From assembly GCA_963849585.1 (NCBI GenBank), contig CAWKHZ010000009.1, forward strand, positions 96,771 through 160,770: 64,000 bases of DNA, written 5' to 3'. The notes beneath the pieces were generated by a model. It saw only the letters and a program-made list of their open reading frames with translations, was not told the origin of the DNA and ran no database searches. Of the stretch, positions 10,836-50,873 are shown in pieces (within the stretch, counting starts at the first letter, position 1; each line of letters opens with the position of its first letter). The position numbers were made by a program, and so were the translations under genes. Origin of the DNA: an uncultured Acidobacteriota bacterium. GTDB taxonomy: Bacteria; Acidobacteriota; Blastocatellia; Pyrinomonadales; Pyrinomonadaceae.

Positions 10836-10867
10836 GCTCCAGATTAGAAATGTAAAGTAATGTAAAG

Positions 10868-12139
10868 TTGGATCGACGGGCTCTAAGTTTAACTCGCCTG
10901 CGTGCTAAACTGCTGCCGAATGTTCCAGACCAGGATTTATTTTTAGCGGTGCCGCTCTTGCTGGCGGCTTTCTTTTTCACCTCCTGCAAGAGCGACTATC
11001 AGGCGCAACAGCGTCAGGGTCAGGGAGCGGGCCGTCCAGGACAAGCGGCTGCCCGGCAAGTCAGAACTACCGCCGTCGCGGAAACTCCTTTTGGCGAAAC
11101 AGTCACCGCCACCGGTACACTCGCGGCCTACGATCAGACAACAGTTAGCGTAAAAGTTCCGGGTCGCGTGCGCGTGATTTCAGTTGACCTCGGATCGGTT
11201 GTTTCGCGTGGACAAGTCATCGCGAATGTCGATTCCGAAGATTACCGGCTGCGCGTGCAACAGGCAGAGGCTTCGTTGGCCCAGGCACGTGCGCGATTGG
11301 GGCTGACGCCGGAGGGCACCGACGACCGCGTCGATCCGGAACAAACAGCGACAGTACGACAGGCGCGCGCCGTGCTCGACGAAGCGCGGTTCAATCGCGA
11401 TCGCGCGGCACGGCTGGTCGAGCAGGGCATCATTGCCAAAGCTGAATTCGACTCCGCGACTTCGGTATACAAAGTCGCCGAAGGTCGATACCAGGACGCC
11501 TACGAAGAGATCCGCAACCGTCAAGGCGTGTTGGCCCAACGAAGATCCGAACTCGCGCTCGCACGACAGCAACTAAAAGACACCAACATCGTTGCGCCAA
11601 TTGACGGCATCGTTCAGGAGAAGATAACGAGCGTTGGCGAGTTTCTCGCCGCGGGCGCACCGGTTGTCAACATCGTTCGTATGGATCCTTTACGTCTGCG
11701 CGCGCAGATACCTGAACGTGAATCGCAGACGATTCGCACAGGTCAGGACGTTCGTGTCACCGTCGAGGGCGACCCCATTGTTTACCTCGGCAAGATCATG
11801 CGCCTGAGTCCGGTGATTGCCGAACAAAACCGTATGCTGATGGTTGAAGCGGACGTTCGGAATAATGGAAAACTCCGGCCGGGATCTTTTGCGCACGCTG
11901 AGATTGTGACGAACGATGCGAAGATGGCTGTCACAGTTCCAAACAGTGCGATTGTTACGTTCGCGGGCATCGAAAAAGTGATTGTCGTTCAAAATGGCAA
12001 AGCGCTCGAAAAACCGATCACTACCGGCCGGCGAAATGCGGAATTTACGGAGATCGTTGCGGGAATTAGTGTTGGTGAGAAAGTGATTGTCGATCCGGGC
12101 AACCTCCAATCGGGACAGGCTGTCGAAGTAGTTGAGTAA
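10868..12139 (+). CDS. efflux RND transporter periplasmic adaptor (HlyD/MFP family)
   Basis: 423 aa. Lipoprotein-like N-terminus (…FFFTSC), lipoyl-like hairpin motifs (GRVRVISVDLGSVVSRGQVIANVD and IVAPIDGIVQEK) and a coiled-coil middle. Directly upstream of the RND pump. Start codon is uncertain (TTG at 10868). Confidence 0.9.
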   Translation: MDRRALSLTRLRAKLLPNVPDQDLFLAVPLLLAAFFFTSCKSDYQAQQRQGQGAGRPGQAAARQVRTTAVAETPFGETVTATGTLAAYDQTTVSVKVPGRVRVISVDLGSVVSRGQVIANVDSEDYRLRVQQAEASLAQARARLGLTPEGTDDRVDPEQTATVRQARAVLDEARFNRDRAARLVEQGIIAKAEFDSATSVYKVAEGRYQDAYEEIRNRQGVLAQRRSELALARQQLKDTNIVAPIDGIVQEKITSVGEFLAAGAPVVNIVRMDPLRLRAQIPERESQTIRTGQDVRVTVEGDPIVYLGKIMRLSPVIAEQNRMLMVEADVRNNGKLRPGSFAHAEIVTNDAKMAVTVPNSAIVTFAGIEKVIVVQNGKALEKPITTGRRNAEFTEIVAGISVGEKVIVDPGNLQSGQAVEVVE

Positions 12140-12221
12140 TGGTCAGTTGTCAGTGGTCAGTTGTCAGTGGCAATAGCATTAACCGGCAGGTACCACGGAC
12201 TACTGACCACTGACCACGGAC
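12140..12221. repeat. intercistronic hairpin with tandem-heptamer arms (GTCAGTG/GTCAGTT)
   Basis: Left arm TGGTCAGTTGTCAGTGGTCAGTTGTCAGTGG (12140-12170). Right arm CCACGGACTACTGACCACTGACCACGGAC (12193-12221) is its imperfect reverse complement. It fills the MFP-RND spacer. Confidence 0.8.
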
Positions 12222-12231
12222 AAATCCTTAA

Positions 12232-15200
12232 ATGCAAAAACTAGCTGAAATATGTATTCGCCGACCTGTCTTCGCGACGATGATCGTGTTGTCGCTGGTG
12301 GTCGTAGGCGCGGCTGGTTTCTTTAGACTCGGCGTCGATCGTTTTCCTGCTGTCGATCTTCCTACAGTTAATGTTCGCATCGGACTTCCGGGCGGCGCGC
12401 CCGAGGAAGTCGAATCGTTAATCACTCAGCAAGTTGAAGAGGTAATCAACACCGTCGACGGCATCAGCGAGTTGCGCTCTGTTTCCGGACAAGGCACGTC
12501 GATGGTGATCGCGACTTTCAACCTCGATCGCGATCTGGAATCCGCCGCTCAGGACGTACGCGATCGCGTCAACACTTTAGGCCGTCGTCTTCCGGAAGAT
12601 TCCACACCACCAGTTGTTCAGAAATTCGACAACGACAGCACGCCGGTCCTGACCATCGCACTCACCGGCGATCGATCAATACGAGAACTCACCGAACTCG
12701 CAGACAAAACTGCGCGACCAATGCTCGAACGCATTGGCGGAGTCGGCGAGGTGCGGGTCGTCGGTGGTCTCGATCGCGCGATCAACGTTTGGATCGACGC
12801 GGACCGACTGGCCGCATACCAAATCTCAATCGCCGCCATCCGGCAGGCACTCGAACGTCAGAACACCGACGTGCCCGGTGGAAATGTAAACACCGGGAAA
12901 GAGGAATTAACCCTCCGCACCCTCGGAAGATTCACGGACCCGCGACAGTTTGCCGATCTCGTCATCGCGAATGTAAACGGTGCGCCTGTCAGGCTCCGCG
13001 ACGTGGGCCGCGTTGAAGACGGTACGAAAGAGCAGCGCTCGTTTTCACGACTCAATGGCGTCCCCACCGTCTCGCTCGACATTCGCCGGCAATCGGGTGC
13101 GAACACAGTCGAAGTCATTCACGGTCTGAAAGAAGCACTGCCGCGCGTCAGTTCTCAACTGCCGAATGACGTCAAGCTCGAAATCATTCGCGATCAGTCG
13201 CGTTATATCGAAGCAGCGCTTCACGAAATCCAGATCCACCTTGTGCTCGGGAGTATTCTCGCCAGCCTGGTCGTGCTGGTGTTTATGCGCTCGTGGCGCT
13301 CCACTTTGATCGCCGCAGTCGCGATTCCGTGCTCCGTCATCTCGACCTTTGGCATGATGAAAGCACTCGACTTCACACTCAACAGCGTCACCATGCTGGC
13401 GCTTGTGCTGATGGTGGGCGTGGTGATCGACGACGCGATTGTCGTACTGGAGAACATCTTCCGCTTCATTGAAGAGAAGCGAATCGAAGCAAAAGAAGCG
13501 GCGCGTGAAGCGACAAAAGACATTGGTCTGGCGGTTCTGGCTACCACTCTGTCTCTGGTCGTAATCTTCCTGCCCGTATCGTTCATGTCGTCGATATCGG
13601 GTCGGTTCCTTTACCAGTTTGGCATCACAGCGGCGGTCGCGATCATGGTGAGCTTGCTGGTCTCGTTCACGCTAACACCAATGATGAGCTCGCGGTTGAT
13701 TCGCGTCAGCGACGCCAAGGGTGGGCATGACGGTCCGTCTTCACGCCGGGGCTTCTATCGTTACATCGATTCGTCTTACTCGTGGTTGTTGGCGTTTGCA
13801 ATGCGGCACCGCATGGCGGTCGCCTTGCTTGCACTCGGAGTGGTCCTAACGAGCATCCCTCTTTATCGCGCAGTCAAACAGGAGTTCATTCCGACAAACG
13901 TCGACGAGGCGGAGTTTGAAATTGGCGTGAATGGTCCAGAAGGCACGAACCTCGCGGTAATGAACGAAACGATGAGCGCGATCGAGAAAGACCTGCTCGA
14001 CACGCCCGGCGTGGAGATGGTGATGTCGTCAGCGGGCGGCGGGTTCCTCGGCGGCGTGAACCAGGGCGACGCGTACGTGCGCATCAAGCCACACGAGGAA
14101 CGCACGTTGTCGTTCAGCAAGTTGTGGCACGAGACCAGGAAGGGAAATCCGCTTAACGCATTTCGCGGAAACTACACGCAACAGGACGTGATGCAGGAGG
14201 CCCGGCGGCGGCTGCGGAAGTACGCGCCGATGCGCACCAGCGTCCGCAACGGGCGCTCGTTCAATTTCGGTACCGGTGGCCGTTCTGACATCGACTTCGT
14301 GTTTCGTGGTCCAGACATCGTGACCCTTGCTGGTTTCGCCGACGAACTGGTCGAGCGCTCAGAAAAGCTTGGCGGCATTGTCGATGCCGACACGACTTTA
14401 AAACTCAACAAGCCGGAGCTGCGCGTCCGCATCGACCGCGAGCGTGCTGCGGATCTCGGCGTCGATACTTCCGATATCGCAACGAGCCTGCGCCTGATGG
14501 TTGGTGGAGAAGAGGAGGCGTCGCGCTTTAGAGACGAACAGATCAACGAAGACTATGACGTGCAATTGCGTCTGACCGAACAGGATCGCAGCGACGCGGG
14601 TACGATCAGTCGACTCTGGGTTCCTTCTTCACGAGGTGGCCCTGGGGGCGGTGCCGGACTGGTGCGGCTCGATAATTTCGTGAAGATCACACGCGATACG
14701 AGCCCGTCGCGAATCGATCGACTCGATCGCGAACGACAGGTTTCCGTGCGCGCTTCGGTAGCGCCCGGTTACGCGCTTGCGGATCGCATCCAGGCATTGC
14801 GCGGCGCAGTCGGCGAGATGAATCTGCCGATCGCTTACACGACCACTGTTTCCGGTCGCGCACGCGAACTCGAGAAGACGTTCACCGAGTTTATCTGGGC
14901 GTTCATCCTGTCAGTGATTTTCATGTACATGATTCTCGCTTCGCAGTTCGAGAGTACTGTGCACCCGCTGACGATCCTGTTGAGCTTGCCGCTTTCGGTG
15001 CCGTTTGCGTTGCTGTCGTTGTGGGGAACTGGAGACACGCTGAATCTCTATTCCGCGCTCGGTGTGCTGGTCTTGTTTGGCGTGGTGAAGAAGAACGCGA
15101 TTCTCCAGATCGATCACATGAACAACCTGCGCGCGAAAGGGATGGAACGTTACGAAGCGATCATGCAGGGCAATCGCGATCGTTTGCGTCCGATTCTGAT

Positions 15201-17663: not shown

Positions 17664-17758
17664 GTCTTTGCGCCTTTGCGTCTTTGCGGGAAACCAATTC
17701 TGAAAGAAGTGCTCTGCTGTTGCGAGAATGGCTCCCGCAAAGGCGCAAAGACGCAAAG
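17664..17758. repeat. inverted pair of the CCCGCAAAGGCGCAAAGACGCAAAG module
   Basis: GTCTTTGCGCCTTTGCGTCTTTGCGGG (17664-17690), a 43-nt spacer, then CCCGCAAAGGCGCAAAGACGCAAAG (17734-17758). It lies in the divergent pncA/pgi intergenic region. The same module occurs at 26943-27052 and 28957-29036. Confidence 0.85.
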
Positions 17759-20859: not shown

Positions 20860-21867
20860 TCATCCGCGTTTGAGAAACCGAAGCAGCGCGCGTTCGGCTT
20901 TGTGCAAGCCATAGCCGCGATAGGAAATGAGGCTTTCCAGACTGCTCGAACAGTGATTGATCATTTGTCCCTTTTCGTACGAAAGAATGATCTCGGGACA
21001 GACGTACGAACTGCGACATACGGCCGGTGTGTTGCCGAGTACTTCCGCGGTCTCCTTGATTGCGGCGACGATCTTCTTTTTCACGGCAGTAGCACTTGCC
21101 GGCGTCTCCTGTCCGTTACGCGCTAGCGCACACGCACAAACCAACGTTCCGGCCCACGTGCGAAAGTCCTTCGCACTGAAACTCTCGCCCATCACTTCCT
21201 TGATGTAATCGTTAATGTGCTGGCGCGTCACCGCCACCGGCTGACCGTTTCCATTCTCAAACTTGAAGACATTGAAACCCGGAAGCTTCAAGGTCGCGCG
21301 AATCACTCGCGCCACTTGCCGATCGCGCAGTTGTCGTTGTTGCCGCACTCCCGACTTGCCGGGAAAGTCAAACTCAATGAGATCGCCTTTTACCGTCACA
21401 TGTTTACGACGCAAAGTCGCGATGCCGTAACTGCCGTGCTCACTCGCGTAGACCTCACTGCCAGGTCGCATGTAGCAGGTCGAGAGAACCCGCAGCACAG
21501 CCGCGAGCACTCGTTCACGCCCGAGACCCGGTTGCCGCAAGTGACGTCTGATCGTGGCCCGCATCTTCGGCAGGGCCAAAGCAAACTTCGTTATGCGCTT
21601 GAACTTTCGTAGGTCTTGAACACGTGTATGATCTTCGTGATACAGGTACTGCCAACGCCCGGCCGCATCGCGACCAACTGCCTGCACTCTTCCTTTCGCG
21701 GCCGGGTTGATCGCCACATCGACCCAGGCTGGCGGGATTTTTAGTCTCTCGATTCTTTCGAAGTCTGCTTTCTTGAGACGGCCGTTCTGCGATTCGTAAC
21801 GGAAGCCGCGCTTCGGGCTACCGAGTCGTCGTATGCCGATATTTTGCAAACGTTCGAGTTTTGTCAT
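20860..21867 (-). CDS. DNA topoisomerase IB (poxvirus-like bacterial type)
   Basis: 335 aa. N-terminal GFRY…IPPAW pattern and C-terminal active-site tyrosine context CRSSYVCPEI (compare S-Y-I-H-P in bacterial TopIB). The size fits the bacterial TopIB family. Confidence 0.8.
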   Translation of the reverse strand: MTKLERLQNIGIRRLGSPKRGFRYESQNGRLKKADFERIERLKIPPAWVDVAINPAAKGRVQAVGRDAAGRWQYLYHEDHTRVQDLRKFKRITKFALALPKMRATIRRHLRQPGLGRERVLAAVLRVLSTCYMRPGSEVYASEHGSYGIATLRRKHVTVKGDLIEFDFPGKSGVRQQRQLRDRQVARVIRATLKLPGFNVFKFENGNGQPVAVTRQHINDYIKEVMGESFSAKDFRTWAGTLVCACALARNGQETPASATAVKKKIVAAIKETAEVLGNTPAVCRSSYVCPEIILSYEKGQMINHCSSSLESLISYRGYGLHKAERALLRFLKRG

Positions 21868-25526: not shown

Positions 25527-25776
25527 GGTCGGAATCTCCTTCTTTGTTTTCTCTTATACAGCGGAGCAACGTTCATGCCAGCACACAAAACGGCAAAATG
25601 GCCGCCGCGGGTGCATCACAACAATCCGATTTTAGGAGTCGGCCCTAAGGACTGTTTGAATTCAAGGCACAGACGAACGAATGCCCTCGAAAGCTTGTCC
25701 AGATTGCGCCAACTGATTATCATCTTTGGGCGAGTATTCGATCCAGTCTTTCCGGTAACCCACGCAGGCAAAACAT

Positions 25777-26595
25777 ATGAGTCGTGAAGTCGAACAACCC
25801 TCTCTCGAGCCGGTGCCCGAGGGCAAGTATGTCTACTGCATCATCGAAACCGATGAACCGCGTTCATTCGGCCCGATGGGTATTGGTGGGCGCGGCGATG
25901 ATATTTACACGGTGCGTCACAAGGGCCTTGCCGCCGTCGTCTCAAACACGCCCCTCGTGGTTTACGACCCCACTCGTGAGAACGTCTTCGCGCACGAGCA
26001 GGTAAACGAGACGGTCATGCGCGAGTTCACCGTGTTGCCGATGGCGTTCGGCGCATTGTTCAAGACGGAAGACGACATCGTCGAGCTGATTCGTGGAACT
26101 TACGACGCGCTCCGCGATGTGCTGGCCAAGATGGAAGGCAAGGTTGAGTTCGGACTGAAGGTGAACTGGGATCGCGACAAAGTTACAGCGGAGCTGGAAG
26201 AGAAAGACGACGAGATCCGTCACCTCAAGGAACAGATCACCACGCGCACGACAGGTTCGACCTATTTCGCACGTATGCAACTGGGTCGCTTGATCGAAAC
26301 GGCGTTGACGGACCAGGCAGATTCGTACATTCGCGAGATCTATTCGCACCTGCGCGACGTGGCCGTCGCCTCCCGCGCCAATAAACCGATTGGCGATCGC
26401 ATGATCATGAACGCGGCGTTTCTGATCGAGCGCGATCGTGAAACTGAGTTCGACCAGAGGGTGAAAGAGATCGCCTCGAAATACGAAGGCAAGCTCTCGT
26501 TCAAGTACAGCGGTCCGTGGCCGCCCTACAACTTCGTCCACATTCGTTTGAAACTGGAGCGCGGCGAAGGCACCACCGAAGCAGTAGCAAGCTAA
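25777..26595 (+). CDS. gvpF: gas vesicle protein, GvpL/GvpF family (paralogue 1)
   Basis: 272 aa. N-terminal KYVYCIIE…, AAVVS…, FTVLPMAFGALF, and C-terminal SGPWPPYNFV, characteristic of GvpF/L. Confidence 0.9.
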   Translation: MSREVEQPSLEPVPEGKYVYCIIETDEPRSFGPMGIGGRGDDIYTVRHKGLAAVVSNTPLVVYDPTRENVFAHEQVNETVMREFTVLPMAFGALFKTEDDIVELIRGTYDALRDVLAKMEGKVEFGLKVNWDRDKVTAELEEKDDEIRHLKEQITTRTTGSTYFARMQLGRLIETALTDQADSYIREIYSHLRDVAVASRANKPIGDRMIMNAAFLIERDRETEFDQRVKEIASKYEGKLSFKYSGPWPPYNFVHIRLKLERGEGTTEAVAS

Positions 26596-26599
26596 GCAA

Positions 26600-26926
26600 A
26601 TGTTTCTGATTGACGATTTACTGCTCGCGCCGGTAAACGGGTTCAAGTTCATCCTGGGCCAGATTCAAAAGATGGCCGATCAGGAGTTGAACGACGACAC
26701 TGTGATCAAGGAGCAGTTGCTCGAGCTGCAAATGCGCAAAGAGCTCGACGAGATCTCCGACGAGGATTTTGCAGAGCAGGAGGCGGAACTGTTTGCTCGG
26801 CTGCGTGCGATCAAGATGCGACAGCTCGACCTGATGCACCAGGTGGTCCATACGAAAGACTCGTCGAGCCTGGTCATCGAAGTCGGTGGTGACTATCAAG
26901 GTGACGAACGGCACGAGCGAGGGTGA
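26600..26926 (+). CDS. gvpG: gas vesicle protein G
   Basis: 108 aa. MFLIDDLLLAPVNGFKFILGQI… followed by an acidic helical tail (ELDEISDEDFAEQEAELFARL), the typical GvpG pattern. Confidence 0.85.
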   Translation: MFLIDDLLLAPVNGFKFILGQIQKMADQELNDDTVIKEQLLELQMRKELDEISDEDFAEQEAELFARLRAIKMRQLDLMHQVVHTKDSSSLVIEVGGDYQGDERHERG

Positions 26927-26942
26927 ACGAGCCATGGGTCTT

Positions 26943-27052
26943 TCCCGCAAAGGCGCAACGACGCAAAGTAAAAATTCCGGGTTCGTTCTTGTAATGCGCT
27001 CTTGTGAGATAGCTCCAGGCCGACTCCTTCGCGTCTTTGCGCCTTTGCGGGA
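26943..27052. repeat. inverted-repeat module (TCCCGCAAAGGCGCAA… / …TTGCGCCTTTGCGGGA) upstream of the ATPase pair
   Basis: Left arm 26943-26968 and right arm 27027-27052 are reverse complements with a few mismatches, separated by a 58-nt loop. It lies between gvpG and the first ArsA-like gene. Confidence 0.85.
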
Positions 27053-27079
27053 GAAACTTCTTGAATCACGTGAGCGAGG

Positions 27080-28024
27080 GTGAAGGCACGTTACCTTTTC
27101 TTCGGCGGCAAAGGTGGGGTCGGTAAGACCACCGCCGCCTCAGCAACCGCACTCTTCCTCCTTCAAGACTCAAAACGAAGCGATTCCATCCTCCTCTTTT
27201 CAACCGATCCCGCACATTCGTTATCCGATAGTCTCGACGTGAAAGTCGGCAATCGTCTCGTTGAGGTGAAACAACTTCGCGGGCGGGGGAAGTTGTTTGC
27301 GTACGAGATGGACGCGAGTCTCGCGCTCGAGCGGTTTCGAACTGCGCATGGCGAAGTACTCGCTGAGATCGCGGAACGCGGAACACTGCTGGACGAAGAC
27401 GATATCAACCAGTTGCTGAATCTTTCGTTGCCGGGGTTGGACGAAGTTATGTCGCTATTTGAGTTGAGTGAAGTCGATCGCGCGGGGAAGTACACGCGCA
27501 TCGTCGTCGACACGGCGCCTTCCGGACATACGTCTCGGCTGTTGCGTTTGCCGGAGGTGTTTGAGCGTATTGTGCGGACGCTGGATTTGATGGGTGAGAA
27601 GCATCGTTACATGATCGAGCAGTTTGCACGGCGCCGGGCGCCACTCGATAAGGTTGAGTTGTTCCTGCGCGATTTGAACGAGAGGATTGCGTCCGTGCGC
27701 AAGTTACTCTACGACACTGATCAGACCAGTTTTTCCCTCGTCACAATTCCGGAGGCGATGAGTGTTCGCGAAACCGAGCGCTATCTCGAGTTGCTGAAAG
27801 AGCAGGGCGTGCCCGTGCGTGATCTGATCGTCAATCGTGTCGAGCAGGAACATGATGATTGTGAATACTGTCATGCGCGTGTTTTGGGTCAGAAGAAGTG
27901 GCTGAAGGAGATCTCGCGGGCGTTTCGCGGGTTGGATTTTCACTATATCCCCTTACAGGCGCAGGAAGTTCGAGGGTTCAAGGCGTTGAATAAGGTCGGG
28001 AAGGTTATATGGAATTCCCATTAA
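27080..28024 (+). CDS. ArsA/Get3(TRC40)-family P-loop ATPase 1
   Basis: 314 aa, GTG start. Deviant Walker A GGKGGVGKTT, STDPAHSLSDSL, switch II DTAPSGHTSRLLRLPE, and CEYCHARVLGQKKWL (CxxC…Q-K-K-W-L, Get3-like zinc motif region). Confidence 0.9.
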   Translation: MKARYLFFGGKGGVGKTTAASATALFLLQDSKRSDSILLFSTDPAHSLSDSLDVKVGNRLVEVKQLRGRGKLFAYEMDASLALERFRTAHGEVLAEIAERGTLLDEDDINQLLNLSLPGLDEVMSLFELSEVDRAGKYTRIVVDTAPSGHTSRLLRLPEVFERIVRTLDLMGEKHRYMIEQFARRRAPLDKVELFLRDLNERIASVRKLLYDTDQTSFSLVTIPEAMSVRETERYLELLKEQGVPVRDLIVNRVEQEHDDCEYCHARVLGQKKWLKEISRAFRGLDFHYIPLQAQEVRGFKALNKVGKVIWNSH

Positions 28025-29007
28025 CCGTAAAGCCGATTGTGATTTTTGGCGGGAAGGGTGGTGTCGGAAAGACCACTGCGGCGGCCGCCTACGCACTGTC
28101 GCTCGCCCACGCTGAACCAAAAAAGAAGTTGCTGATCTTTTCAACCGATCCGGCGCATTCGCTGTCTGACAGTTTTGGTGAGGAGATTGGTCGCGAAAAG
28201 AAAAGCGTCGCCGGCAATACGAACCTCGATGCGATGGAGATCGATCCGGGAGAGTGGTTTGAAGAACTCAAAACACGTTATCGAACGTGGACCGACGAGC
28301 TTTTTGATTCATTGACCGGCGCCTCGCGAATGGAGATCAAATTCGATCGAGAAGCGATGCGTGAACTGGTTGAACTGACGCCCCCAGGCATTGACGAGAT
28401 TGCGGCGTTGGGCGCGATCAGCGATCTGCTCGACGAGAATCGATATCACTCAATCATTCTCGACACAGCTCCGACGGGCCATTTAATCCGGTTTTTGGAG
28501 TTACCGCAGGTCGCGCTCTCATGGATACGAACGTTCATGAAGCTGCTGTTAAAGTATCAGAACGTCGTGAAGGCGACGCAGGTCGCGGAAGAGTTGGTGG
28601 CGTTGTCGAAGAGTATTAAGGGAGTTCTCGCTTTGCTTACTGACGCGAAGCGTTGCGAGTTTGTCGGTGTGGCGATTCCGGAGCGGATGAGTTTGGAAGA
28701 AACGCAGGACCTCGCGAAGGCGCTCGACAAGCTCCAAGTGCCAATGGAGAAGCTTTTGATCAATGGGATGGTCCCCAAAAACAAATGTGATTTCTGTAAA
28801 TCGAGGCGGAAGATGCAGGACGAGGTAGTTGTGAACTTTCGGAAGCGGTTTCGTTCGGTCCAATTGTTTACTGCCCCTCAACAACCGCACGAAATCACCG
28901 GCGCCAAGGATTTACTGAACCATTTTCAGAGTTGGCGAGGGTTGAGAGTGGAAGTTTCCCGCAAAGGCGCAAAGGCGCAAAAAGAACGGTCCAGCGAGGA
29001 GGCTTAA
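28009..29007 (+). CDS. ArsA/Get3(TRC40)-family P-loop ATPase 2
   Basis: 332 aa, overlapping ATPase 1 by 16 nt. Motifs GGKGGVGKTT, STDPAHSLSDSF, DTAPTGHLIRFLELPQ, CDFCKSRRKMQDE. The last ~15 codons (SRKGAKAQKERSSEEA) are encoded by the repeat module. Confidence 0.9.
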   Translation: MEFPLTVKPIVIFGGKGGVGKTTAAAAYALSLAHAEPKKKLLIFSTDPAHSLSDSFGEEIGREKKSVAGNTNLDAMEIDPGEWFEELKTRYRTWTDELFDSLTGASRMEIKFDREAMRELVELTPPGIDEIAALGAISDLLDENRYHSIILDTAPTGHLIRFLELPQVALSWIRTFMKLLLKYQNVVKATQVAEELVALSKSIKGVLALLTDAKRCEFVGVAIPERMSLEETQDLAKALDKLQVPMEKLLINGMVPKNKCDFCKSRRKMQDEVVVNFRKRFRSVQLFTAPQQPHEITGAKDLLNHFQSWRGLRVEVSRKGAKAQKERSSEEA

Positions 29008-29036
29008 TTTCCTTTGCGTCTTTGCGCCTTTGCGGA
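28957..29036. repeat. inverted-repeat module downstream of the ATPase pair
   Basis: TCCCGCAAAGGCGCAAAGGCGCAAAAAG (28957-28984), a 26-nt loop containing the ATPase-2 stop codon, then CCTTTGCGTCTTTGCGCCTTTGCGGA (29011-29036). Confidence 0.85.
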
Positions 29037-29072
29037 AAACTGTAATGAGTGTAAAACACTCTGGACAAACAG

Positions 29073-29876
29073 ATGAACCTGGCCTTCTACGTCTACTGTA
29101 TCGCCGAAAGTTCGGCAGCCGCCGAACTTGCGGCGGGTTCGCTGCCGTCGGCGATTGAAGAAGATTCGAAACTCGAATGGCTCTCGAGCGGCGAACTGGC
29201 GGCACTGATTAGCGAGGTGCCTTTAGCCAGTTATAGTGAAGAAAGCCTTGCTGAACACCTGTCCGATCCGAGTTGGACCGCGGTTCGCGCGATGCGTCAT
29301 GAAACGATCGCGGAGCATGTTGCCAAACGAGCCGCGGTGGTGCCGCTCCGTTTTGGGACTATTTACCTCGAGCGCGCCAAAATCGAACGGATGTTGTCGG
29401 AAAAGAGAAGAGAGCTTCGCGAAATCCTTGAACGCCTGCGCGGGCGTGAAGAGTGGGGCGTGAACATTTTTTGCGATCAGTCCGTGTTGATGTCGAGCAT
29501 CACTTCAGTCAGCCCGGTGTTGCGCGAATTATCGGAGCGTGCGGCCCAGGCCTCGCCCGGCCAGTCGTACCTGATGCAAAAGAAGATCGACGCGTTGAAG
29601 GTCGACGAAGCGCGTGCTGCTCTGAATCGAATTGTCGAACAAGTTGAACAGACACTCGGCGAGCAGAGCGTTGATGCAAAACGTCTGCGTGTGTTAAAGG
29701 TCGAAGCGACTGAGCATGGTGAACTTAAAGCGAAGTTTGCTTTTCTTGTGACGAAGTCGGAGTTTGACGCTTTTCGCGATGCCGCTGAACGGTTGGCACA
29801 GGAACATCAGAGCGCCGGTGTACGTCTTGAACTTACGGGACCCTGGCCCGCATATAATTTTACCCAAATTGAATAA
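29073..29876 (+). CDS. gvpL: gas vesicle protein, GvpL/GvpF family (paralogue 2)
   Basis: 267 aa. FYVYCIAE…, VVPLRFGTIY, C-terminal TGPWPAYNF. Confidence 0.88.
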   Translation: MNLAFYVYCIAESSAAAELAAGSLPSAIEEDSKLEWLSSGELAALISEVPLASYSEESLAEHLSDPSWTAVRAMRHETIAEHVAKRAAVVPLRFGTIYLERAKIERMLSEKRRELREILERLRGREEWGVNIFCDQSVLMSSITSVSPVLRELSERAAQASPGQSYLMQKKIDALKVDEARAALNRIVEQVEQTLGEQSVDAKRLRVLKVEATEHGELKAKFAFLVTKSEFDAFRDAAERLAQEHQSAGVRLELTGPWPAYNFTQIE

Positions 29877-30083
29877 ATGAGTGAGCAATTGGAACAGTTA
29901 GATATTCTGGAGCAGTCTGATGTCTCGTTGCTCGAAACTCTCGATCACGTGCTCAACCGCGGCCTCGTGATCGCGGGCGAAATCACTATCTCCGTCGCCG
30001 ACATCGACTTGATCTTTATCGGCTTGAACGTCCTCGTCAGTTCGGTCGAGACTGCCAACGAAGTCGTACGCAAACGTGAATGA
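29877..30083 (+). CDS. small GvpA-family gas vesicle protein (GvpS/GvpM-like)
   Basis: 68 aa. LLETLDHVLNRGLVIAGEITISVADIDLIFIGLNVLVSSVETA matches the GvpA/J/M/S core. Its start abuts the upstream stop. Confidence 0.85.
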   Translation: MSEQLEQLDILEQSDVSLLETLDHVLNRGLVIAGEITISVADIDLIFIGLNVLVSSVETANEVVRKRE

Positions 30084-30817
30084 AGTTATATGTCTACTGC
30101 CTCGCCGAGAAGCCAGCCGTGAAGCCCGCCGTGAAGTTCGCCGCGCTGGCAGCGCCAGTCGTGGGCATTTCAGGCGTGAACGTCGAGGTCATCGAGGTAG
30201 AAGGTCTTTCCTTGCTGGTGAGCCGATATGAAGGCGATTCAGCGCTGGTAACTCGTGAAAATGTCCTTACTCACGATAGTGTTGTTCGCAGCGTGCTCAA
30301 TGAAACAACGCCGTTACCCTTTCGGTTCGGATCTGTGGTAACGGAACAACAGCTCGCCAGTTATATACGGACTCACCGAAAGAATTTGGAAATGAAACTA
30401 GGTCAGGTCCGCGGCTGTCTCGAGATGAGCGTAAAGATCATCTGGGACACGGATGAGACCGAATCAGGATCAAAGAGGGATGATCTAGGCCCAGGAGCGG
30501 CATTTCTCCTCCAAAAACAGCGCGAAATCATGGGCGGGGAACATCGCGCTGAGAAAGCAAAGCAAGTGTCCTCATGGCTCAGCGAACAGGTTGAGGGGCT
30601 GGTGAAGCAGGAAGAAGTTAGTCTTTGCCCGACAGAAAAGCTGATCGTGGCCGCAGCTCATCTGGTTAGCCGCCAGAAAGTTGCGGAATACCGCGAGAGC
30701 CTCGCCGAAGCCCGTAAAACACGGCCGGAACTCCACTTTTTGGTAAGCGGACCGTGGCCGCCGTATACTTTTTCCAACATAGAGCTTGAAGTCAAAACGC
30801 GGTTCGGAGTAAGCTGA
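30080..30817 (+). CDS. gas vesicle protein, GvpL/GvpF family (paralogue 3)
   Basis: 245 aa. LYVYCLAE…, PLPFRFGSVV, C-terminal SGPWPPYTF. ATGA overlap with the upstream gene. Confidence 0.85.
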   Translation: MKLYVYCLAEKPAVKPAVKFAALAAPVVGISGVNVEVIEVEGLSLLVSRYEGDSALVTRENVLTHDSVVRSVLNETTPLPFRFGSVVTEQQLASYIRTHRKNLEMKLGQVRGCLEMSVKIIWDTDETESGSKRDDLGPGAAFLLQKQREIMGGEHRAEKAKQVSSWLSEQVEGLVKQEEVSLCPTEKLIVAAAHLVSRQKVAEYRESLAEARKTRPELHFLVSGPWPPYTFSNIELEVKTRFGVS

Positions 30818-31182
30818 TGGAGCTTTCCCCCGAAAAATCCCCTACGGCTGAGCCGGAGATCGAAACCTCGCACGTTGATGAGTTTGTAGAGCAATTGAGT
30901 TGCGTCACAAACTCTTTACCGTCGCGAATTAATATCGACGCGCAAAGCGTCGAACAGGGTCTCGCGAAGCTGGTTCTTACTTTGATCGAGTTCATCCGTC
31001 GTCTGCTCGAAAAGCAGGCGGTCCGCCGCATGGAAGGCGGGGATCTCTCACCTGAACAAATCGAAGAACTCGGGTTGGCGCTTATGAAGTTAGAAGGGAA
31101 GCTTCAAGAACTAAAAGAACAATTTGGGTTAACGGATGAAGATCTCAATCTCGATCTCGGTCCTGTGGGACGTCTGATTTAA
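30817..31182 (+). CDS. gvpK: gas vesicle protein K
   Basis: 121 aa. GLAKLVLTLIEFIRRLLEKQAVRRME is the conserved GvpK core. 1-nt overlap with the upstream gene. Confidence 0.88.
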   Translation: MELSPEKSPTAEPEIETSHVDEFVEQLSCVTNSLPSRINIDAQSVEQGLAKLVLTLIEFIRRLLEKQAVRRMEGGDLSPEQIEELGLALMKLEGKLQELKEQFGLTDEDLNLDLGPVGRLI

Positions 31183-31273
31183 CTGAAGTAAGTCTTTCCC
31201 CGGCATTGCATACGACGGTGGCGGCCACCTGAGCTTTTTGAGTTAAGCCGCCTCCTGAGAGTGGAGGACGAAA

Positions 31274-31651
31274 GTGTCCAGTGAGCGGTCTACCCTTATA
31301 ACTGCCCGTCCCCCGGGCTTAGTTGATGTTCTCGATCGCATTCTTGACAAGGGGTTGGTCATAGCCGGCGACATCAAAGTGTCGCTCGCCAACGTAGAAC
31401 TACTCACCTTGCAGATTCGACTACTCGTGTGTTCGATCGACAAGGCAGAGCAAATTGGCCTGAACTGGTGGCGCTACGACACGAACCTGACGACAAGGGC
31501 CGCGCGCGCCGAGGCCGAGAACGTCGAATTGCGGGAGCGACTCTCGCAGCTGGAGCTGGAGATCCGAAAGCTTGGAGCGAGCGGCACCGTAACCGAGGTC
31601 ACGCGAACAGAGATCAAAAAGAATATTAAGAGCAAAGGGCGGCGTCGTTAA
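31274..31651 (+). CDS. gvpJ: gas vesicle protein J (GvpA family)
   Basis: 125 aa, GTG start preceded by GGAGGA. LVDVLDRILDKGLVIAGDIKVSLANVELLTLQIRLLVCSIDKAEQIGLNWW plus a charged helical tail. Confidence 0.88.
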   Translation: MSSERSTLITARPPGLVDVLDRILDKGLVIAGDIKVSLANVELLTLQIRLLVCSIDKAEQIGLNWWRYDTNLTTRAARAEAENVELRERLSQLELEIRKLGASGTVTEVTRTEIKKNIKSKGRRR

Positions 31652-31701
31652 CGCTGGGCTAATGCTGGCTTTCACAACTTTGGATAAAGGAACCTAAGCA
31701 A

Positions 31702-31983
31702 ATGGCTGTCGAAAGAGCACCAGGCGGAACTAGTCTAATAGACGTCCTTGATCGCGTACTCGACAAGGGTATCGTCATCGACGCCTGGGTCCGTATCTCA
31801 CTGGTGGGAATAGACCTGATCACCATCGAAGCTCGTGTGGTTGTTGCTTCAATTGACACTTACCTCAAGTACGCTGAAGCCGTAGGTCTGACGCCGGCCG
31901 TTTCCCGCCCGGCTTTGACCCCCGGAGCAGAAACTGTGGAAACTGAAACTCGTCGCCGAGTCACAGTTGAAGAGAAAAAATAA
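31702..31983 (+). CDS. gvpA: major gas vesicle structural protein GvpA
   Basis: 93 aa. [53 protein letters not shown] is near-canonical GvpA. It has an extra charged C-terminal tail of about 20 aa. Confidence 0.95.
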
Positions 31984-31984
31984 C

Positions 31985-32033
31985 ACACGGTGTAGTCCGT
32001 GTTTTGATGTGTGCGGCAAACACAAATTTTTAG
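31985..32033 (+). terminator. weak terminator candidates after gvpA
   Basis: ACACGG-TGTAGT-CCGTGT followed by TTT (31985-32005), and a second short hairpin TGTGTG…AACACA followed by AATTTTT. Both stems are short. Confidence 0.3.
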
Positions 32034-32036
32034 AAA

Positions 32037-35000
32037 ATGGGTGAAGTCCCCACAGAGTTAGCCTTTGCCACGGTCCCGCCGATCTCAGATAACGAACGGA
32101 TCGGTTCCTACCTGCGCCAGTATGAAGTGTTCGTGGAGACCACGACGCAGATGCTGGCGACACCTCGGGTGAATGAACGACTCCTGCTCGCGCTGGAAGG
32201 CATTGCCAACATCTTCGGACACCGGCAGGCCGCCGTTGCCATCATCAATGAAAGAGATGCCGAGTTGCGCATCCGCGCGGCCGTCGGTTTTGACGCTGAG
32301 CAACCGGCACGAGCGGAGATGCCGCTGGATTCCAGCGCTGCGTGTGTACGCGTGATTCACGACGCCGTTCCGTTGTGGATCTCTATGAAGGAAGACGTCG
32401 CCTCACGAACTCTCTTCGACAAAATGCACTGGCAGAACGACATCCTCGCGTTGCCGTTGTTTGGAATCTCCGAGATCTCTCCGACTCGAACCCGCGATTC
32501 ACGAAGCGGTTCGCGACTTCCCGGTCAATTCTGGACTTTCGAACCAGGCTCGCGACTCGGCGTTCTTTACGTCGGCGCCGATCGAGAAACAATCGACCCG
32601 CTTTCTCTTAATCTATTGAAACGCTTCGCCGATCGCGTAGGCATCATCACGTCGCTCGCGACTCACCAGGAGAAGCTCGTCACTACCGTTACGAAACTAC
32701 AGCGGGAACGGCAGTGGATCGAGTCGATCATGAAGTCGGTCGCCGATCCGATAGTGCTCACCGATCTCGACAACGAAATCCTGCTGCAGAATCGACGCGC
32801 CGAGGAATTGTTCAGCGGATCGGCAAACGCCGGCGAAGGAAAACGCCGCGCGCTCAAGATGAACGACCTGCTGTTCTCGGCTTATCTGTCGAGCGCGACC
32901 GTTTCGTCTTCGAATTTAATCCAGCGAGACATCACGCTCGTCGACCCGATTGAAGGTTCGGACATCCACTTCGAAGTAATCTCGACACCCGCCGCAAACT
33001 CGCGTGGCGAACCGCTCGGTCTCGTCTCGATCTTTCGCGACGTGACCGATCTGCGCGAAGCGAACGAAGAGCTCGCGCGCAACTTCATCAAGTTGCAACA
33101 CGCCGAATCCGATGCGCTCGTGAACGCGATCGTCTCGACCTGATCATCGAAAACGTGGGCCATCCGATCGTCGTCTGCGATTCGGCGGGCAACTACATTC
33201 TGTTCAACCGCCGCGCGGAGTTGTTGTTCGAAGAGAAGTCGTCGTTTCGTGCAGCCGCGGCTGGCGCCGTTCGGACCAACGCAGTGAAGCTCACGTCGTT
33301 CATCTCAGGCCTGGCGTCGGCATCGGAAACCGGCAGGCAGGCGGAGATCGAGTTGATCGATCCTGAGAGTGGCCGATTTTTGCCGATGGAGATCACGGCG
33401 CGCGAGGTTTTGGATCCAACGGGCCAGGTCACAGCGGTAGTTTCGATTCTTCACGACCTGACCGAGATTCGCGAGCTCGAGCGACGCCGCGTCGAACAAC
33501 AGTTGTTTGAGTCAGAGAAACTCGCCGCGGTCGGCCGTCTCGCCGCGTCGATCGCTCACGAAGTCAACAATCCGCTGGAAGCTATCAAGAACGCGCTTTA
33601 CCTGATGCAATCGGGATCCGAATGAGAACAAGAACTCCCGCTTCCTCGAGATCGCGCGAAAGGAAACCGAACGCGTTTCACACATCATTCGCCAGATGCT
33701 TGGTTTCGCGCGCCGTCCCGGCGAGGTCGATTGGGTTGACGTGAATCAATTGCTCGAAGAGACGCTCGTGCTGCTGGAAAAGAAATTGCGCCAGCAGCGC
33801 ATCCGCGTGAACGGGATTTGATCGAGACGCTGCCGCAGATTCGCGCGCGCGCCGACCAATTGCGCCAGGTGTTTCTCAATCTGATTCATCAACGCGCAGC
33901 AGGCAATCAAGGCGGCGGTGAGATCAACATCTCACGTCGCGCTACGAACAGGCATTGCAGCCGTCGATCATCGTCCAAATCAGCGACAGCGGCGTCGGTA
34001 TCGCGAAGACGATTTGCGCGCATCTTCGATCCGTTTTTCTCCACCGGCAAGAAAGGAACTGGCCTCGGCTTGTGGGTGACGCAGGACATCGTCAGACAAC
34101 ACGGCGGCCGCATCGAAGTGAGCAGCGAACTAGGCCGCGGCACTGTTTTCAGCATCGTACTGCAGGTTGATTCCCCGATTTTCGAAGCAAGAAACCGGAA
34201 CGGTAACGACAAAATGAGCCACAGATTGGACCATACCGATAAGGACCTGGCAGTAGATGACGGAAACGGCATGCCGTCGCTTATACATGACGGACGATTG
34301 CTGGTGGTCGATGATGAAGAGAATCTGCGCATCACCACCGCTGCAATTCTCGAAAAGGAGGGTTACACGGTTGACACCGCGTCCAGCGGCGACGAAGCGA
34401 TCGCCCTGCTCGGCAGAAACTGATTACGATCTCGTGCTCACCGACCTGCACATGGAAGGCGGCGAAGGACTGGCGGTACTCAACGAGATCCGCCGTCACG
34501 CACCGTTGACGATCTCCGTCGTCCTGACTGGGTTTGCTTCGGTCGAATCGGCCATCTCCGCGCTGCAGGAAGGCGCGTACGACTATCTCGTCAAGCCGTG
34601 TGACATCGAGAGCGATGAAACACACGATTCGCCGCGGCGTCGATCACCGTCGTCTCATGCTCGCCGAACAGAAGGCGCGCACTGATCTGGAGCAGCTCAA
34701 TCTCGATCTCGAACAGAGAATCGTCGAACGCACGGCCGAGTTGACTCGCCTGAACGCCGAGCTCGCCGAAGCGAATCGCGCGAAAGACGTTTTTCTCGCG
34801 ACGCTTTCCCACGAATTGCGCACGCCGCTTACGCCCGTCGTGGGCTGGATCAAACTATTGCGCAGCGGGAATCTCGACAAGAAGAGCGTGGCGCAGGCGC
34901 TGGACGCGATCGAACGAAACGCCTGGCTGCAGGCGCGACTGATCGACGATCTGCTCGACACTTCGCGCATTGCCACCGGCAAGTTGCAGTTCGAACCGCG

Positions 35001-35902
35001 GCCCATGGACTTGAACTTGGCCGTCAAAGCCGCGCTCGACACAGTGCTCGCGTCTGCCGCTTCGCGCAATATCGAACTGTCCGTCAATCTGTCGCCTTCA
35101 ACGCTTGTCGTCATGGGTGAGCCGGTGCGACTCCAGCAGATCGCCTGGAACCTTGCTTTCAAATGCCATCAAGTTCACTGAACCCGGCGGGAAGGTGACT
35201 GTCTCGACACTGAGGTCGACGGCCGCAAGCGCGTCTCGTCGTGATCGGACACAGGAATCGGCATCGACCCGGATTTCCTGCCGCACGTCTTCGATCGTTT
35301 CCGGCAGGCAGACGGCTCGACGTCGCGTCGCCATGGCGGCTTGGGACTCGGCCTCGCGATCGCCGATGCGCTGGCAAAGATGCACGGCGGGCGGTTCGAG
35401 GCGCAGTCGGAAGGCGCACGGAAAAGGCTCAACTTTCATGTTCCGCATATGGCACTGGCAGCGGAACACGTAATCCCCGAGGAACCGGTCGAGCAAGAGT
35501 CATTCGTTGAAAGATCTTGGAGGTGTTGATTGTCGAAGACTCGGAAGACACGCTGACGCTGCTGAGCGCGATGTTCTCGCGTGAAGGTGCGAACGTGATC
35601 ACCGCGACTTCCGCCGCCTACGCTTTGGAGCGGGCGAGCACAAACCAGCCCGACATCGTGATTTCCGACATCGGCATGCCGGACGTCGATGGTTACGAGC
35701 TGCTCGAACAACTCAAGCAGATTCCCCGGAATGAACAGCATTCCGGCGATTGCGATCTCCGGATACGCCAGTGACGAGGACCGGCGCAAAGCGCATCAGC
35801 GTCGGCTACCTCGCGCTCATCCCAAAACCGATCGACGTTGACGCCCTTTTCGAGTTCATTCACGACCTAAAACTCCCGAAAATGTCGCCGGCGAATAAGT
35901 AA
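32037..35902 (+). pseudogene. GAF/PAS hybrid sensor histidine kinase-response regulator locus with two kinase cores; multiply frameshifted as given
   Basis: Fragments:
- 32037..33143: GAF + PAS.
- 33155..33625: PAS + H-box AASIAHEVNNPL.
- 33818..34423: G-box GTGLGLWVTQDIVRQHGGRI, then REC LLVVDDEENL.
- 34257..34685: REC DLVLTDLHMEGGEG…LVKPCDIE.
- 34534..35181: coiled coil + second H-box FLATLSHELRTPL.
- 35105..35529: NAIKFTEPGG and GLGLAIADALAKMHGG.
- 35517..35774: second REC VLIVEDSEDTL…DIGMPDVDGYELL.
The tail reads to TAA at 35900-35902. It could be one or two genes; the frame breaks prevent a decision. Confidence 0.75.
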
Positions 35903-50114: not shown

Positions 50115-50873
50115 ATGAGTTCATCCGAGCCCCTAATCCACCTCGCTGACGTCAAGAAAGTCTTCGACACAGACGAAGTGGAGACCCACGCGCTCTCCGG
50201 TATTCACCTCGACATCAAACAAGGTGAGTACGTTTCCATTGCCGGTCCTTCGGGCTGCGGCAAGTCTACCCTTCTGTCGATTCTCGGCCTGCTCGATACG
50301 CCGACTGACGGTGAGTATGTCCTCAACGATCATCCCGGTCGAAAACTTTCGCTGTCCGAGCGCGCGCGCATCCGTAATCGCGAAGTCGGTTTCATTTTTC
50401 AGAGCTTCAACCTGATCGGCGATCTCACCGTTTACGAAAACGTCGAACTGCCGCTGACTTATCGCGGCATGAGCTCGGCCGAACGAAAGAAACGTACCAC
50501 TGAAGCGCTCGAACGCGTCGGCATGGCCCATCGCGCGAAACACTTGCCGAGCCAGCTCTCCGGCGGTCAACAGCAACGCGTCGCGGTCGCCCGCGCAGTC
50601 GGCGGACAGCCGAGCATCCTGCTCGCAGACGAGCCGACTGGAAACCTCGACTCAACCAACGGCGAAGCCGTGATGGAACTGATGCGCGAACTGCATCGCG
50701 GCGGCGCCACGATCTGCATGGTGACGCACGATCCGCGTTACGCGCAGCACGCCGATCGCATCGTCCACTTGTTCGACGGCCAGATCGTCGAAGAAGAGGC
50801 CGGCGCCGATCGACGCGAGATTCGGGAGGCCAAGCGCGAGTTGAAAGAAAGCGGATTCGGAGCCATTTCATGA
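50115..50873 (+). CDS. ABC transporter ATP-binding protein (MacB/LolD-type)
   Basis: 252 aa. Walker A GPSGCGKST, signature LSGGQQQRVAVARA, Walker B ILLADEPTGNLD. Confidence 0.93.
   Translation: MSSSEPLIHLADVKKVFDTDEVETHALSGIHLDIKQGEYVSIAGPSGCGKSTLLSILGLLDTPTDGEYVLNDHPGRKLSLSERARIRNREVGFIFQSFNLIGDLTVYENVELPLTYRGMSSAERKKRTTEALERVGMAHRAKHLPSQLSGGQQQRVAVARAVGGQPSILLADEPTGNLDSTNGEAVMELMRELHRGGATICMVTHDPRYAQHADRIVHLFDGQIVEEEAGADRREIREAKRELKESGFGAIS

Follow-up and report, generated by a model that had tools for sequence, protein, structure and literature searches.

The 64,000-nt stretch analysed here (referred to as the window) comes from an uncultured Acidobacteriota bacterium of the family Pyrinomonadaceae (positions 96,771-160,770 of contig CAWKHZ010000009.1, assembly GCA_963849585.1) and carries, at 25777-31983 on the + strand, ten intact open reading frames (ORFs) joined by overlaps or short spacers over a total of 6.2 kb. 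Eight of them are gas-vesicle (gvp) genes (three gvpF/L, gvpG, gvpK, one gvpS/M-like, one gvpJ-like and gvpA), and the other two, which are translationally coupled, encode the proteins called here ATPase-1 and ATPase-2. The evidence supports both as Get3/TRC40-like ATPases and not as arsenite-pump ArsA proteins. We consider it probable that this is a functional “minimal” gas-vesicle operon, in which the two-gene Get3-like unit would serve as an ATP-driven chaperone or delivery factor for the hydrophobic Gvp proteins. The genes, in their order, and the ATPase motifs on which this reading leans are the following (lengths in amino acids, aa):

25777-26595, + strand: GvpF/L-1, 272 aa (PF06386, 264 bits)
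26600-26926, + strand: GvpG, 108 aa, with an N-terminal hydrophobic helix (PF05120, 73 bits)
27080-28024, + strand: ATPase-1, 314 aa, GTG start (PF02374, 243 bits)
27107-27130, + strand: P-loop GKGGVGKT of ATPase-1, aa 10-17 (motif reading)
27860-27871, + strand: CxxC of ATPase-1, C261-E-Y-C264 (aligns with the CxxC of 3zq6 and 3ug6)
28009-29007, + strand: ATPase-2, 332 aa (PF02374, 230 bits)
28051-28074, + strand: P-loop GKGGVGKT of ATPase-2, aa 15-22 (motif reading)
28786-28797, + strand: CxxC of ATPase-2, C260-D-F-C263 (aligns with the CxxC of 3ug6 and 3zq6)
29073-29876, + strand: GvpF/L-2, 267 aa (PF06386, 184 bits)
29877-30083, + strand: small GvpA-family protein, GvpS/M-like, 68 aa (PF00741, 55.7 bits)
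30080-30817, + strand: GvpF/L-3, 245 aa (PF06386, 148 bits)
30817-31182, + strand: GvpK, 121 aa (PF05121, 116.5 bits)
31274-31651, + strand: GvpJ-like GvpA-family protein, 125 aa (PF00741, 61.8 bits)
31702-31983, + strand: GvpA, the major shell protein, 93 aa (NF006874, 118.8 bits against a cut-off of 100; also PF00741)

Families were assigned to the ORF translations by Pfam and NCBIfam profile searches, in which all ten proteins match the expected Gvp or ArsA_ATPase families and the GvpF/L, GvpG, GvpK and GvpJ/M/S paralogues all exceed the Pfam gathering scores. The original prediction, made from the letters and their translations, had proposed a ten-gene gvp operon with these coordinates, strand and order, and both the ORF positions and the families agree with it. 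Its description of the genes as tightly packed holds for the overlaps and short spacers, but not for the 153-nt gap before ATPase-1, which is the insertion of a repeat element. The operon is taken to be real and maintained by selection because its gene order is kept in the relative used for comparison, L001 (an 821 kb contig, 88% identical over ATPase-1), which has the same ten genes, and because the ratio of nonsynonymous to synonymous divergence (dN/dS) between the two lies at 0.015-0.28 over the ten genes, with dS of 0.24-1.9. The ratio is 0.08 for ATPase-1, 0.09 for ATPase-2, 0.024 for GvpF/L-1 (98% aa identity) and 0.015 for GvpA (99% aa identity, dS 0.64), the latter with a C-terminal extension of about 25 aa that is kept in L001. 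The nearest named relatives are Pyrinomonadaceae metagenome-assembled genomes (MAGs; Acidobacteriota, Blastocatellia). Regarding the other small proteins, aa 1-19 are the most hydrophobic 19-mer of GvpG, and the hydrophobic core of the GvpS/M-like protein (aa 36-54, mean Kyte-Doolittle value 2.0) ends 14 residues before the C-terminus, in a tail-anchor-like layout.

The two ATPases are 31% identical to each other, and both translations carry the ArsA/Get3-family motifs that had been named beforehand (Walker A, DPAHSLSD and DTAP(S/T)GH): GGKGGVGKTT and DPAHSLSD are read in both, and switch II is DTAPSGH in ATPase-1 and DTAPTGH in ATPase-2, i.e., the P-loop, switch I and switch II are intact in the two proteins. 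In addition, alignments show that each ATPase keeps a CxxC where Get3 has the zinc-binding CxxC of its dimer hinge. The segments in question (CEYCHARVLGQKKWL, aa 261-275 of ATPase-1, and CDFCKSRRKMQDE, aa 260-272 of ATPase-2) continue with R-x-x-x-Q, as in archaeal Get3, and in phmmer alignments both CxxC match the archaeal Get3 structures 3zq6 and 3ug6 column for column. They also align with the CxxC of archaeal homologues, and the motif is invariant in 30 homologues of ATPase-1 and in 32 of ATPase-2.

The profile TIGR00345 (GET3/ArsA/TRC40) gives 229.5 bits for ATPase-1 and 234.8 bits for ATPase-2 against a cut-off of 135, and, since this model spans both Get3 and ArsA, it alone cannot separate them; the ArsA equivalog TIGR04291 gives 112 and 119.6 bits, far under its cut-off of 650. 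Sequence matches in the PDB are ranked equally for both ATPases (archaeal Get3 first, eukaryotic Get3 second and E. coli ArsA last), with 3zq6 as the best single-domain match of ATPase-1 (E 4e-46) and 3ug6 and 3zq6 as matches of ATPase-2 (E about 1e-42), and the match to E. coli ArsA spans only the N-terminal half of ATPase-1 and about three quarters of ATPase-2. In an alignment with Salmonella ArsA, neither ATPase has a cysteine aligned with the metalloid cysteines Cys113, Cys172 and Cys422, and a helical segment after switch II, present in both ATPases, corresponds to a gap in ArsA. AlphaFold (AF2) models, with a predicted local distance difference test (pLDDT) of 67 for ATPase-1 and 77 for ATPase-2, predict long helices in that segment, and the 50 top Foldseek matches of each model in the PDB are all Get3/TRC40, archaeal Get3 first and client-bound forms included. 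HMM (hidden Markov model) scores, PDB ranking, Foldseek matches, CxxC and helical segment thus all support the Get3/TRC40-like assignment, and the likeness of the CxxC to Get3 rather than to ArsA, which the original prediction had pointed out, is borne out by the alignment with 3zq6 and 3ug6 and by the missing ArsA cysteines. Neither ATPase falls inside arsenite-efflux ArsA: in addition to the TIGR04291 scores, true ArsA halves form their own group in neighbour-joining (NJ) trees (61/100 bootstraps), apart from the window ATPases, which group with gvp-linked Blastocatellia domains.

Why, then, are there two genes? In the close relatives L007 (77% identity) and L009-L018, the corresponding protein is a single fused polypeptide of 625-751 aa (ORF length counted from the first possible start codon), with two P-loops, two CxxC and a variable linker of about 30 aa. 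This linker is lost in the window and in L001, L006 and L008, where the stop of the first gene overlaps the start of the second (by 16 nt in the window, ATGGAATTCCCATTAA). In the NJ trees ATPase-1 groups with the Blastocatellia N domains and ATPase-2 with the C domains (100/100 bootstraps each), and in reciprocal best matches with the fused protein of Nostoc, ATPase-1 pairs with its N half and ATPase-2 with its C half. The pair is shown to be a lineage-specific split of a fused two-domain Get3/TRC40-like ATPase, and, because the split form is represented in well over a hundred independent protein clusters (about 315-330 aa), it is an inherited state and not an assembly error. Protein clusters of about 315-330 aa number more than 200. 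That the split arose as a frameshift artefact was ruled out by its sharing in L001, L005, L006 and L008, and is also countered by the more than 100 independent clusters of about 315 aa and by a dN/dS of about 0.08-0.09 in both genes. Since ATPase-1 and ATPase-2 correspond to the two domains, N and C, of what close relatives make as one polypeptide, a heterodimer of the two would be the natural reading, and its earlier suggestion is backed by the N/C-domain orthology to those relatives. In the trees, only the Blastocatellia-level N/C orthology is firm; a single ancient duplication giving all N and all C domains is unsupported (bootstrap 24/100), and the GvpN-less cluster types do not form one clade of the ATPase (8-19/100). 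A second split, apparently independent of that of Blastocatellia, is seen at 9474-11574 of L050 (a Brocadiaceae MAG), with ORFs of 310 and 359 aa (counted from the first possible start codon), an 88-nt spacer and GvpN present in the cluster.

The occurrence of the ATPase in gvp clusters was surveyed by scanning one genome per GTDB species with an alignment of ATPase-1 and annotating the best 80 loci with gvp queries; as it was seeded with the ATPase, the survey measures the share of the ATPase found inside gvp clusters and not the share of gvp clusters that have it. Inside gvp clusters lie 67 of the 80 nearest homologue loci, mostly alongside GvpN and spread over more than ten phyla: Acidobacteriota (several classes), Bacteroidota, Desulfobacterota and other “delta” lineages, Chloroflexota, Nitrospirota, Planctomycetota, Cyanobacteria, Myxococcota, Methylomirabilota, Bacillota, Spirochaetota, Cloacimonadota, MAGs labelled as Patescibacteria and one archaeon. 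The genomic link between the ATPase and the gvp genes is thus shown to be tight and ancient, especially with gvpG, directly 3' of which the two-domain ATPase lies in 33 of the 38 loci with a visible upstream gene. The CxxC is present in both halves nearly everywhere, with or without GvpN, except in cyanobacteria.

Three architectures can be told apart. The first, that of the window, reads gvpF/L-gvpG-ATPase-gvpF/L-gvpS-gvpF/L-gvpK, with gvpJ and gvpA before or after and nothing else; 13 species representatives (from Blastocatellia, Terriglobia, Vicinamibacterales, Methylomirabilota, Myxococcota and one “deltaproteobacterial” MAG) have a complete cluster of this type with at least 3.2 kb of flank on each side, and no GvpN, GvpO, GvpC, Hsp20 or AAA+ was found within 3-9 kb either side of them. 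The second, mainly in Bacteroidota, reads gvpA-gvpN-gvpJ-Hsp20-ATPase (a single domain of about 312 aa)-Cdc48-like AAA+-three gvpF/L-gvpG-gvpF/L-gvpS-gvpF/L-gvpK. In the third, GvpN is present and the fused ATPase follows gvpG (Desulfobacterota, Terriglobia) or stands at the cluster edge (cyanobacteria). In 17-18 loci (L024, L028, L029 at 9444-13124, L031-L036, L045, L048 and others), alongside GvpN, the single-domain ATPase, with its CxxC, is placed between Hsp20 and a Cdc48/p97-like double-ring AAA+ protein of about 720 aa, a set resembling a proteostasis module within the gas-vesicle cluster. Regarding the cyanobacterial fused homologues (L043, L052, L075, L078, L083 and L084, and L065-L067, L071, L072 and L076 of Nostoc), the CxxC is lost in both halves, and several of the non-heterocystous ones have no gvp gene within 10 kb; as these are not near gvp genes, the cyanobacterial subclade may have a different or broader role. 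At 8400-15200 of L027, a 2.57 Mb contig of an Acidobacteriota MAG, a cluster of the window type has the ATPase in three pieces and gvpF/L in eight, and is either pseudogenised or part of an error-rich assembly.

The original prediction had been aware of no characterised gas-vesicle system of this type. The survey shows the arrangement to be common, and Castillo & Saier had already described it in 2010, reporting ArsA homologues inside the gvp clusters of members of four phyla, namely Bacteroidetes/Chlorobi, Geobacter, Anabaena/Nostoc and Acidobacteria bacterium Ellin345, for whose cluster two L/F genes, single J, K and M genes and no N are listed (PMC2963123). In the proposal made there, the ATPase “energises a biogenic step” other than the one served by GvpN, with no mention of a Get3-type CxxC and no experimental test (PMC2963123). 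These two-domain homologues (clusters 4 and 6 of those authors, Aba1 of Ellin345, with 634 aa, and those of Nostoc/Anabaena) likewise lie inside gvp clusters, without ars genes and without the ArsA cysteines, and their N and C domains are orthologous to ATPase-1 and ATPase-2, respectively. They differ in being single two-domain polypeptides of about 600-650 aa, whereas the window has 314 + 332 aa from overlapping genes with the linker lost, and the cyanobacterial members lack the CxxC that the window has. A Nostoc sphaeroides plasmid is annotated with gvpA-A-C-N-J-K-F and, further on, an “ArsA family ATPase” (634 aa) followed by an AAA ATPase. No paper combining “gas vesicle” and “Get3” was found in the searched literature, and a full-text search with gvpN and ArsA-type product names gave nothing relevant.

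Outside gvp clusters, the best sequence and structure matches of the window ATPases are archaeal Get3 (3zq6 from M. thermautotrophicus and 3ug6 from M. jannaschii) and eukaryotic Get3, with which they share the P-loop, the switch motifs, the CxxC and the helical subdomain. Get3, however, is a homodimer of one gene product that delivers tail-anchored membrane proteins to a membrane receptor, whereas the window has two diverged subunits in a gvp context, with no receptor gene and no classical tail-anchored client seen. ArsA (E. coli R773, 1f48) belongs to the same superfamily, has the DTAPTGH switch II in common and, like the window pair, comprises two homologous nucleotide-binding halves, which work as a pseudo-dimer, but it has metalloid cysteines and ars partners, which the window ATPases lack, while these have the CxxC and the extra helical segment after switch II. 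BagA and BagB, from Mycobacterium tuberculosis, form a heterodimer. They are the two different, adjacently encoded subunits (Rv3679/Rv3680) of a bacterial Get3-like ATPase (PDB 6bs3; PMC10597346), but their similarity to the window proteins is distant (41-72 bits with the BagA/BagB equivalogs NF053622 and NF053621, against cut-offs of 400 and 521) and they are tied to glycerol and nitric-oxide stress rather than gas vesicles.

With the canonical GvpN-containing clusters (Halobacterium, Anabaena, B. megaterium, Serratia), the window shares the core of A, F/L, G, J/M/S and K, but differs in that no N, C or O was found, gvpA comes last and the Get3-like pair stands between gvpG and the second gvpF/L. 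The Streptomyces cluster gvpOAFG-JLSK is likewise without N and C (PMC9501494); it was used here as the GvpN-less actinomycete example instead of a Rhodococcus plasmid, for which only a partial cluster is annotated. The 2022 review that lists it in its Table 1 nevertheless gives gvpA, gvpC and gvpFGKLN as conserved in all clusters (PMC9501494). GvpN is treated as universal (PMC10903477, PMC9501494) and as required for elongation (PMC10903477, PMC11445434), and a 2024 interaction study, in which ArsA goes unmentioned, proposes GvpF and GvpG as chaperones of GvpA, a very hydrophobic and aggregation-prone protein (PMC11445434).

The absence of GvpN and GvpO from the window, already noted in the original prediction, was confirmed by two approaches. 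Searches by tblastn with GvpN of Halobacterium, Nostoc and Methylocella, and with GvpO, two GvpC, GvpH and GvpI, returned only noise in the 64 kb (E>0.03), and HMMs built from proteins of related loci for GvpN (31 sequences from many phyla), GvpO, Hsp20 and the Cdc48-like AAA+ had no match at E<=1 among the window ORFs of at least 45 aa. For GvpC, also noted as absent, the Nostoc and Halobacterium queries found no tblastn match in the window, although the protein is poorly conserved and a diverged copy outside the operon may escape such a search; every operon ORF is assigned by Pfam to a family other than GvpC. The classical Walker A motif occurs in only four window ORFs of at least 60 aa, namely those of ATPase-1 and ATPase-2 and a further two, at 50115-51538, for ABC-transporter ATPases, and the Get3-like pair is the only nucleoside triphosphatase (NTPase) in the operon by this survey. 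ArsR, ArsD, ArsB, ArsC and ACR3 gave no tblastn match in the window at E<0.01, in agreement with the earlier statement that arsB, arsC, arsD and arsR are missing.

How could a Get3-like pair act in gas-vesicle formation? ATPase-1 and ATPase-2 would associate as a heterodimer that mimics the Get3 homodimer or the fused pseudo-dimer of the relatives, with one zinc ion, held by four cysteines, predicted to bridge them. ATP binding and hydrolysis would open and close the helical subdomain, and this cycle would capture and release a hydrophobic Gvp segment, which could be the beta-hairpin core of GvpA/J/S, placed near the C-terminus of these very short proteins, or else the helix at the N-terminus of GvpG. 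Given this helix and the conserved adjacency of its gene, GvpG may be another client or a partner, and the ATPase would work together with GvpF/L and GvpG, post-translationally, during vesicle nucleation and growth. GvpA-family proteins are very short, so that their hydrophobic core leaves the ribosome only around termination, which, by analogy, would be the very difficulty that Get3 overcomes in handling tail-anchored proteins.

Several points weigh against this proposal. No operon protein has a classical tail anchor or a C-terminal transmembrane helix, and no Get1/2-like receptor is evident. As established for the structure of GvpA, the hydrophobic core of GvpS is a beta-hairpin segment and not a transmembrane helix. 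The AlphaFold model of ATPase-1 is of only moderate confidence (pLDDT 67), and the putative heterodimer and zinc site are drawn from homology. No experiment in the literature ties this ATPase family to gas-vesicle formation, and gas vesicles are unreported in Acidobacteriota in the literature searched. Furthermore, the well-studied gvp clusters in Table 1 of PMC9501494 include no Get3-like ATPase gene, and the ATPase is therefore not universally required.

Among the alternatives, the one that survives best is that in the GvpN-less minimal clusters the Get3-like ATPase substitutes for GvpN as the sole energy source that drives bicones into full vesicles. It is possible, but doubtful. It fits with the pair being the only NTPase of an operon in a window where GvpN, Cdc48-like AAA+, Hsp20 and GvpO were not found, with the same absence within 3-9 kb of the 13 complete clusters of this type, and with reviews in which GvpN is held to be universal and needed for elongation (PMC10903477, PMC11445434). 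Nonetheless, the ATPase coexists with GvpN in most of the sampled clusters, which points to a role of its own; SIMIBI and AAA+ ATPases differ in mechanism; the absence of GvpN is established for the 64 kb window, and a gvpN gene may lie elsewhere in the genome; clusters of the Streptomyces type lack both GvpN and the ATPase (PMC9501494); and GvpN-less clusters might make just small bicones. The replacement of GvpN that the original prediction had raised is, as a general role, not supported, given that coexistence and the Streptomyces clusters with neither. Because most ATPase-bearing gvp clusters carry GvpN, the two are not simple alternatives, and the ATPase is better seen as an assembly factor in its own right than as a GvpN replacement. 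We hold only tentatively the narrower version for the GvpN-less clusters (the window and at least 13 species in several phyla), in which a zinc-bridged Get3-like ATPase, with no GvpN, would be the sole energy-consuming assembly factor and would deliver GvpA-family proteins into a lipid-free shell.

The operon might also be cryptic, i.e., conserved for another role, with no buoyancy organelles made in soil bacteria, as has long been debated for actinomycete gvp clusters. The relatives are indeed soil or dryland MAGs, the searched literature reports no vesicles for Acidobacteriota, and two sensor-kinase genes downstream are frameshifted in the window genome. We regard this as improbable: GvpA is 99% identical to that of the relative at a dS of 0.64, the full set of nucleation and shell genes is retained, and the cluster type is kept across several phyla.

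Less likely still, and clearly so, is a MinD/ParA-related SIMIBI pair that spaces or segregates the vesicles instead of assembling them. The deviant Walker A motif and weak matches to the CbiA, ParA and MinD models are what such a positioning ATPase would share, but none of those matches rises above its curated cut-off, whereas that of the Get3 model is exceeded by a wide margin; the Get3-specific CxxC and helical subdomain are present, the 50 top structural matches of each model are all Get3, and the neighbours in the single-domain type are chaperone-like (Hsp20, Cdc48-like). Finally, an arsenite-efflux ArsA lying by chance inside a gvp operon, as the Pfam ArsA_ATPase match and source annotations such as “arsenite-transporting ATPase” might suggest, is refuted by TIGR04291 scores of 112 and 120 bits against a cut-off of 650, by the missing Cys113/172/422 and by the lack of arsB, acr3, arsC, arsD and arsR in the window, and is further opposed by the gvp context kept in 67 of 80 relatives and by the trees, where the ArsA halves stand separate (61/100) and the window ATPases join the gvp-linked Blastocatellia domains (100/100).

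Apart from the genes, the operon region contains the following features:

25695-25723, + strand: sigma-70-like promoter match, 54 nt 5' of the first gene (TTGTCC-17-TATCAT, 9/12 matches; weak)
26938-27057, no strand: palindrome like those of repetitive extragenic palindromes or miniature inverted-repeat transposable elements (REP/MITE-like), in the gvpG/ATPase-1 spacer (inverted repeat I2; RNA hairpin of -56.6 kcal/mol, z -4.6)
28953-29041, no strand: second REP/MITE-like palindrome, overlapping the 3' end of ATPase-2 and the spacer that follows (inverted repeat I3; hairpin of -50.9 kcal/mol, z -6.4)
31985-32002, no strand: terminator-like hairpin directly 3' of the gvpA stop, with T-runs on both strands (consensus match only)

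The scan for promoters and terminators was not clearly above chance, and the promoter is a lead only, because such sites are no more numerous in the region than in the shuffled expectation. The palindromes belong to a set of three REP/MITE-like copies (17667-17757, 26938-27057 and 28953-29041), with arms close to CCGCAAAGGCGCAAAGRCGCAAA and a chance expectation of none. The two in the operon bracket the ATPase pair exactly, the second taking in the stop of ATPase-2 and roughly its last 18 codons together with the spacer before gvpF/L-2, and could set segment-specific mRNA stability. Neither was found at these sites in L001, where the spacer between ATPase-2 and gvpF/L-2 has only 9 nt, while L006 has an arm match in the corresponding gvpG/ATPase-1 spacer.

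The flanks common to the window and L001 comprise an FAD/Rieske oxidoreductase upstream and, downstream, a PAS histidine kinase, a hybrid kinase, an Rrf2 protein and a sigma-70 factor. At 32037-35726, 3' of gvpA, the PAS histidine kinase and the hybrid response-regulator/kinase are broken in the window by isolated 1-nt indels (33117, 33627, 33811, 34412, 34614, 35151 and others), none of which occurs in the ten genes of the gvp cluster, and both are intact in L001 (729 and 546 aa); this is either decay of likely regulators or a local assembly error. A bacterial type IB topoisomerase (Topoisom_I + Top1B_N_bact), encoded on the - strand at 20860-21867, is also kept 5' of the cluster in L001.

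The window bears on how the extremely hydrophobic GvpA stays soluble, how it enters the growing shell and what ATP hydrolysis serves. In current reviews GvpN figures as the universal ATPase and Get3-like ATPases go unmentioned, yet the latter are a conserved part of gvp clusters across more than ten phyla. To the association published in 2010 (PMC2963123) the window adds only its split-gene version; it is, nonetheless, a compact test case, whose ten genes span 6.2 kb, evolve under strong purifying selection and include the Get3-like pair as the sole NTPase, and a small GvpN-free cluster would be of interest for engineering gas vesicles as acoustic reporters. If the tentative version for the GvpN-less clusters is true, a machine known only for the insertion of tail-anchored proteins into lipid membranes would have been recruited for building a lipid-free protein shell, with GvpN dispensed with.

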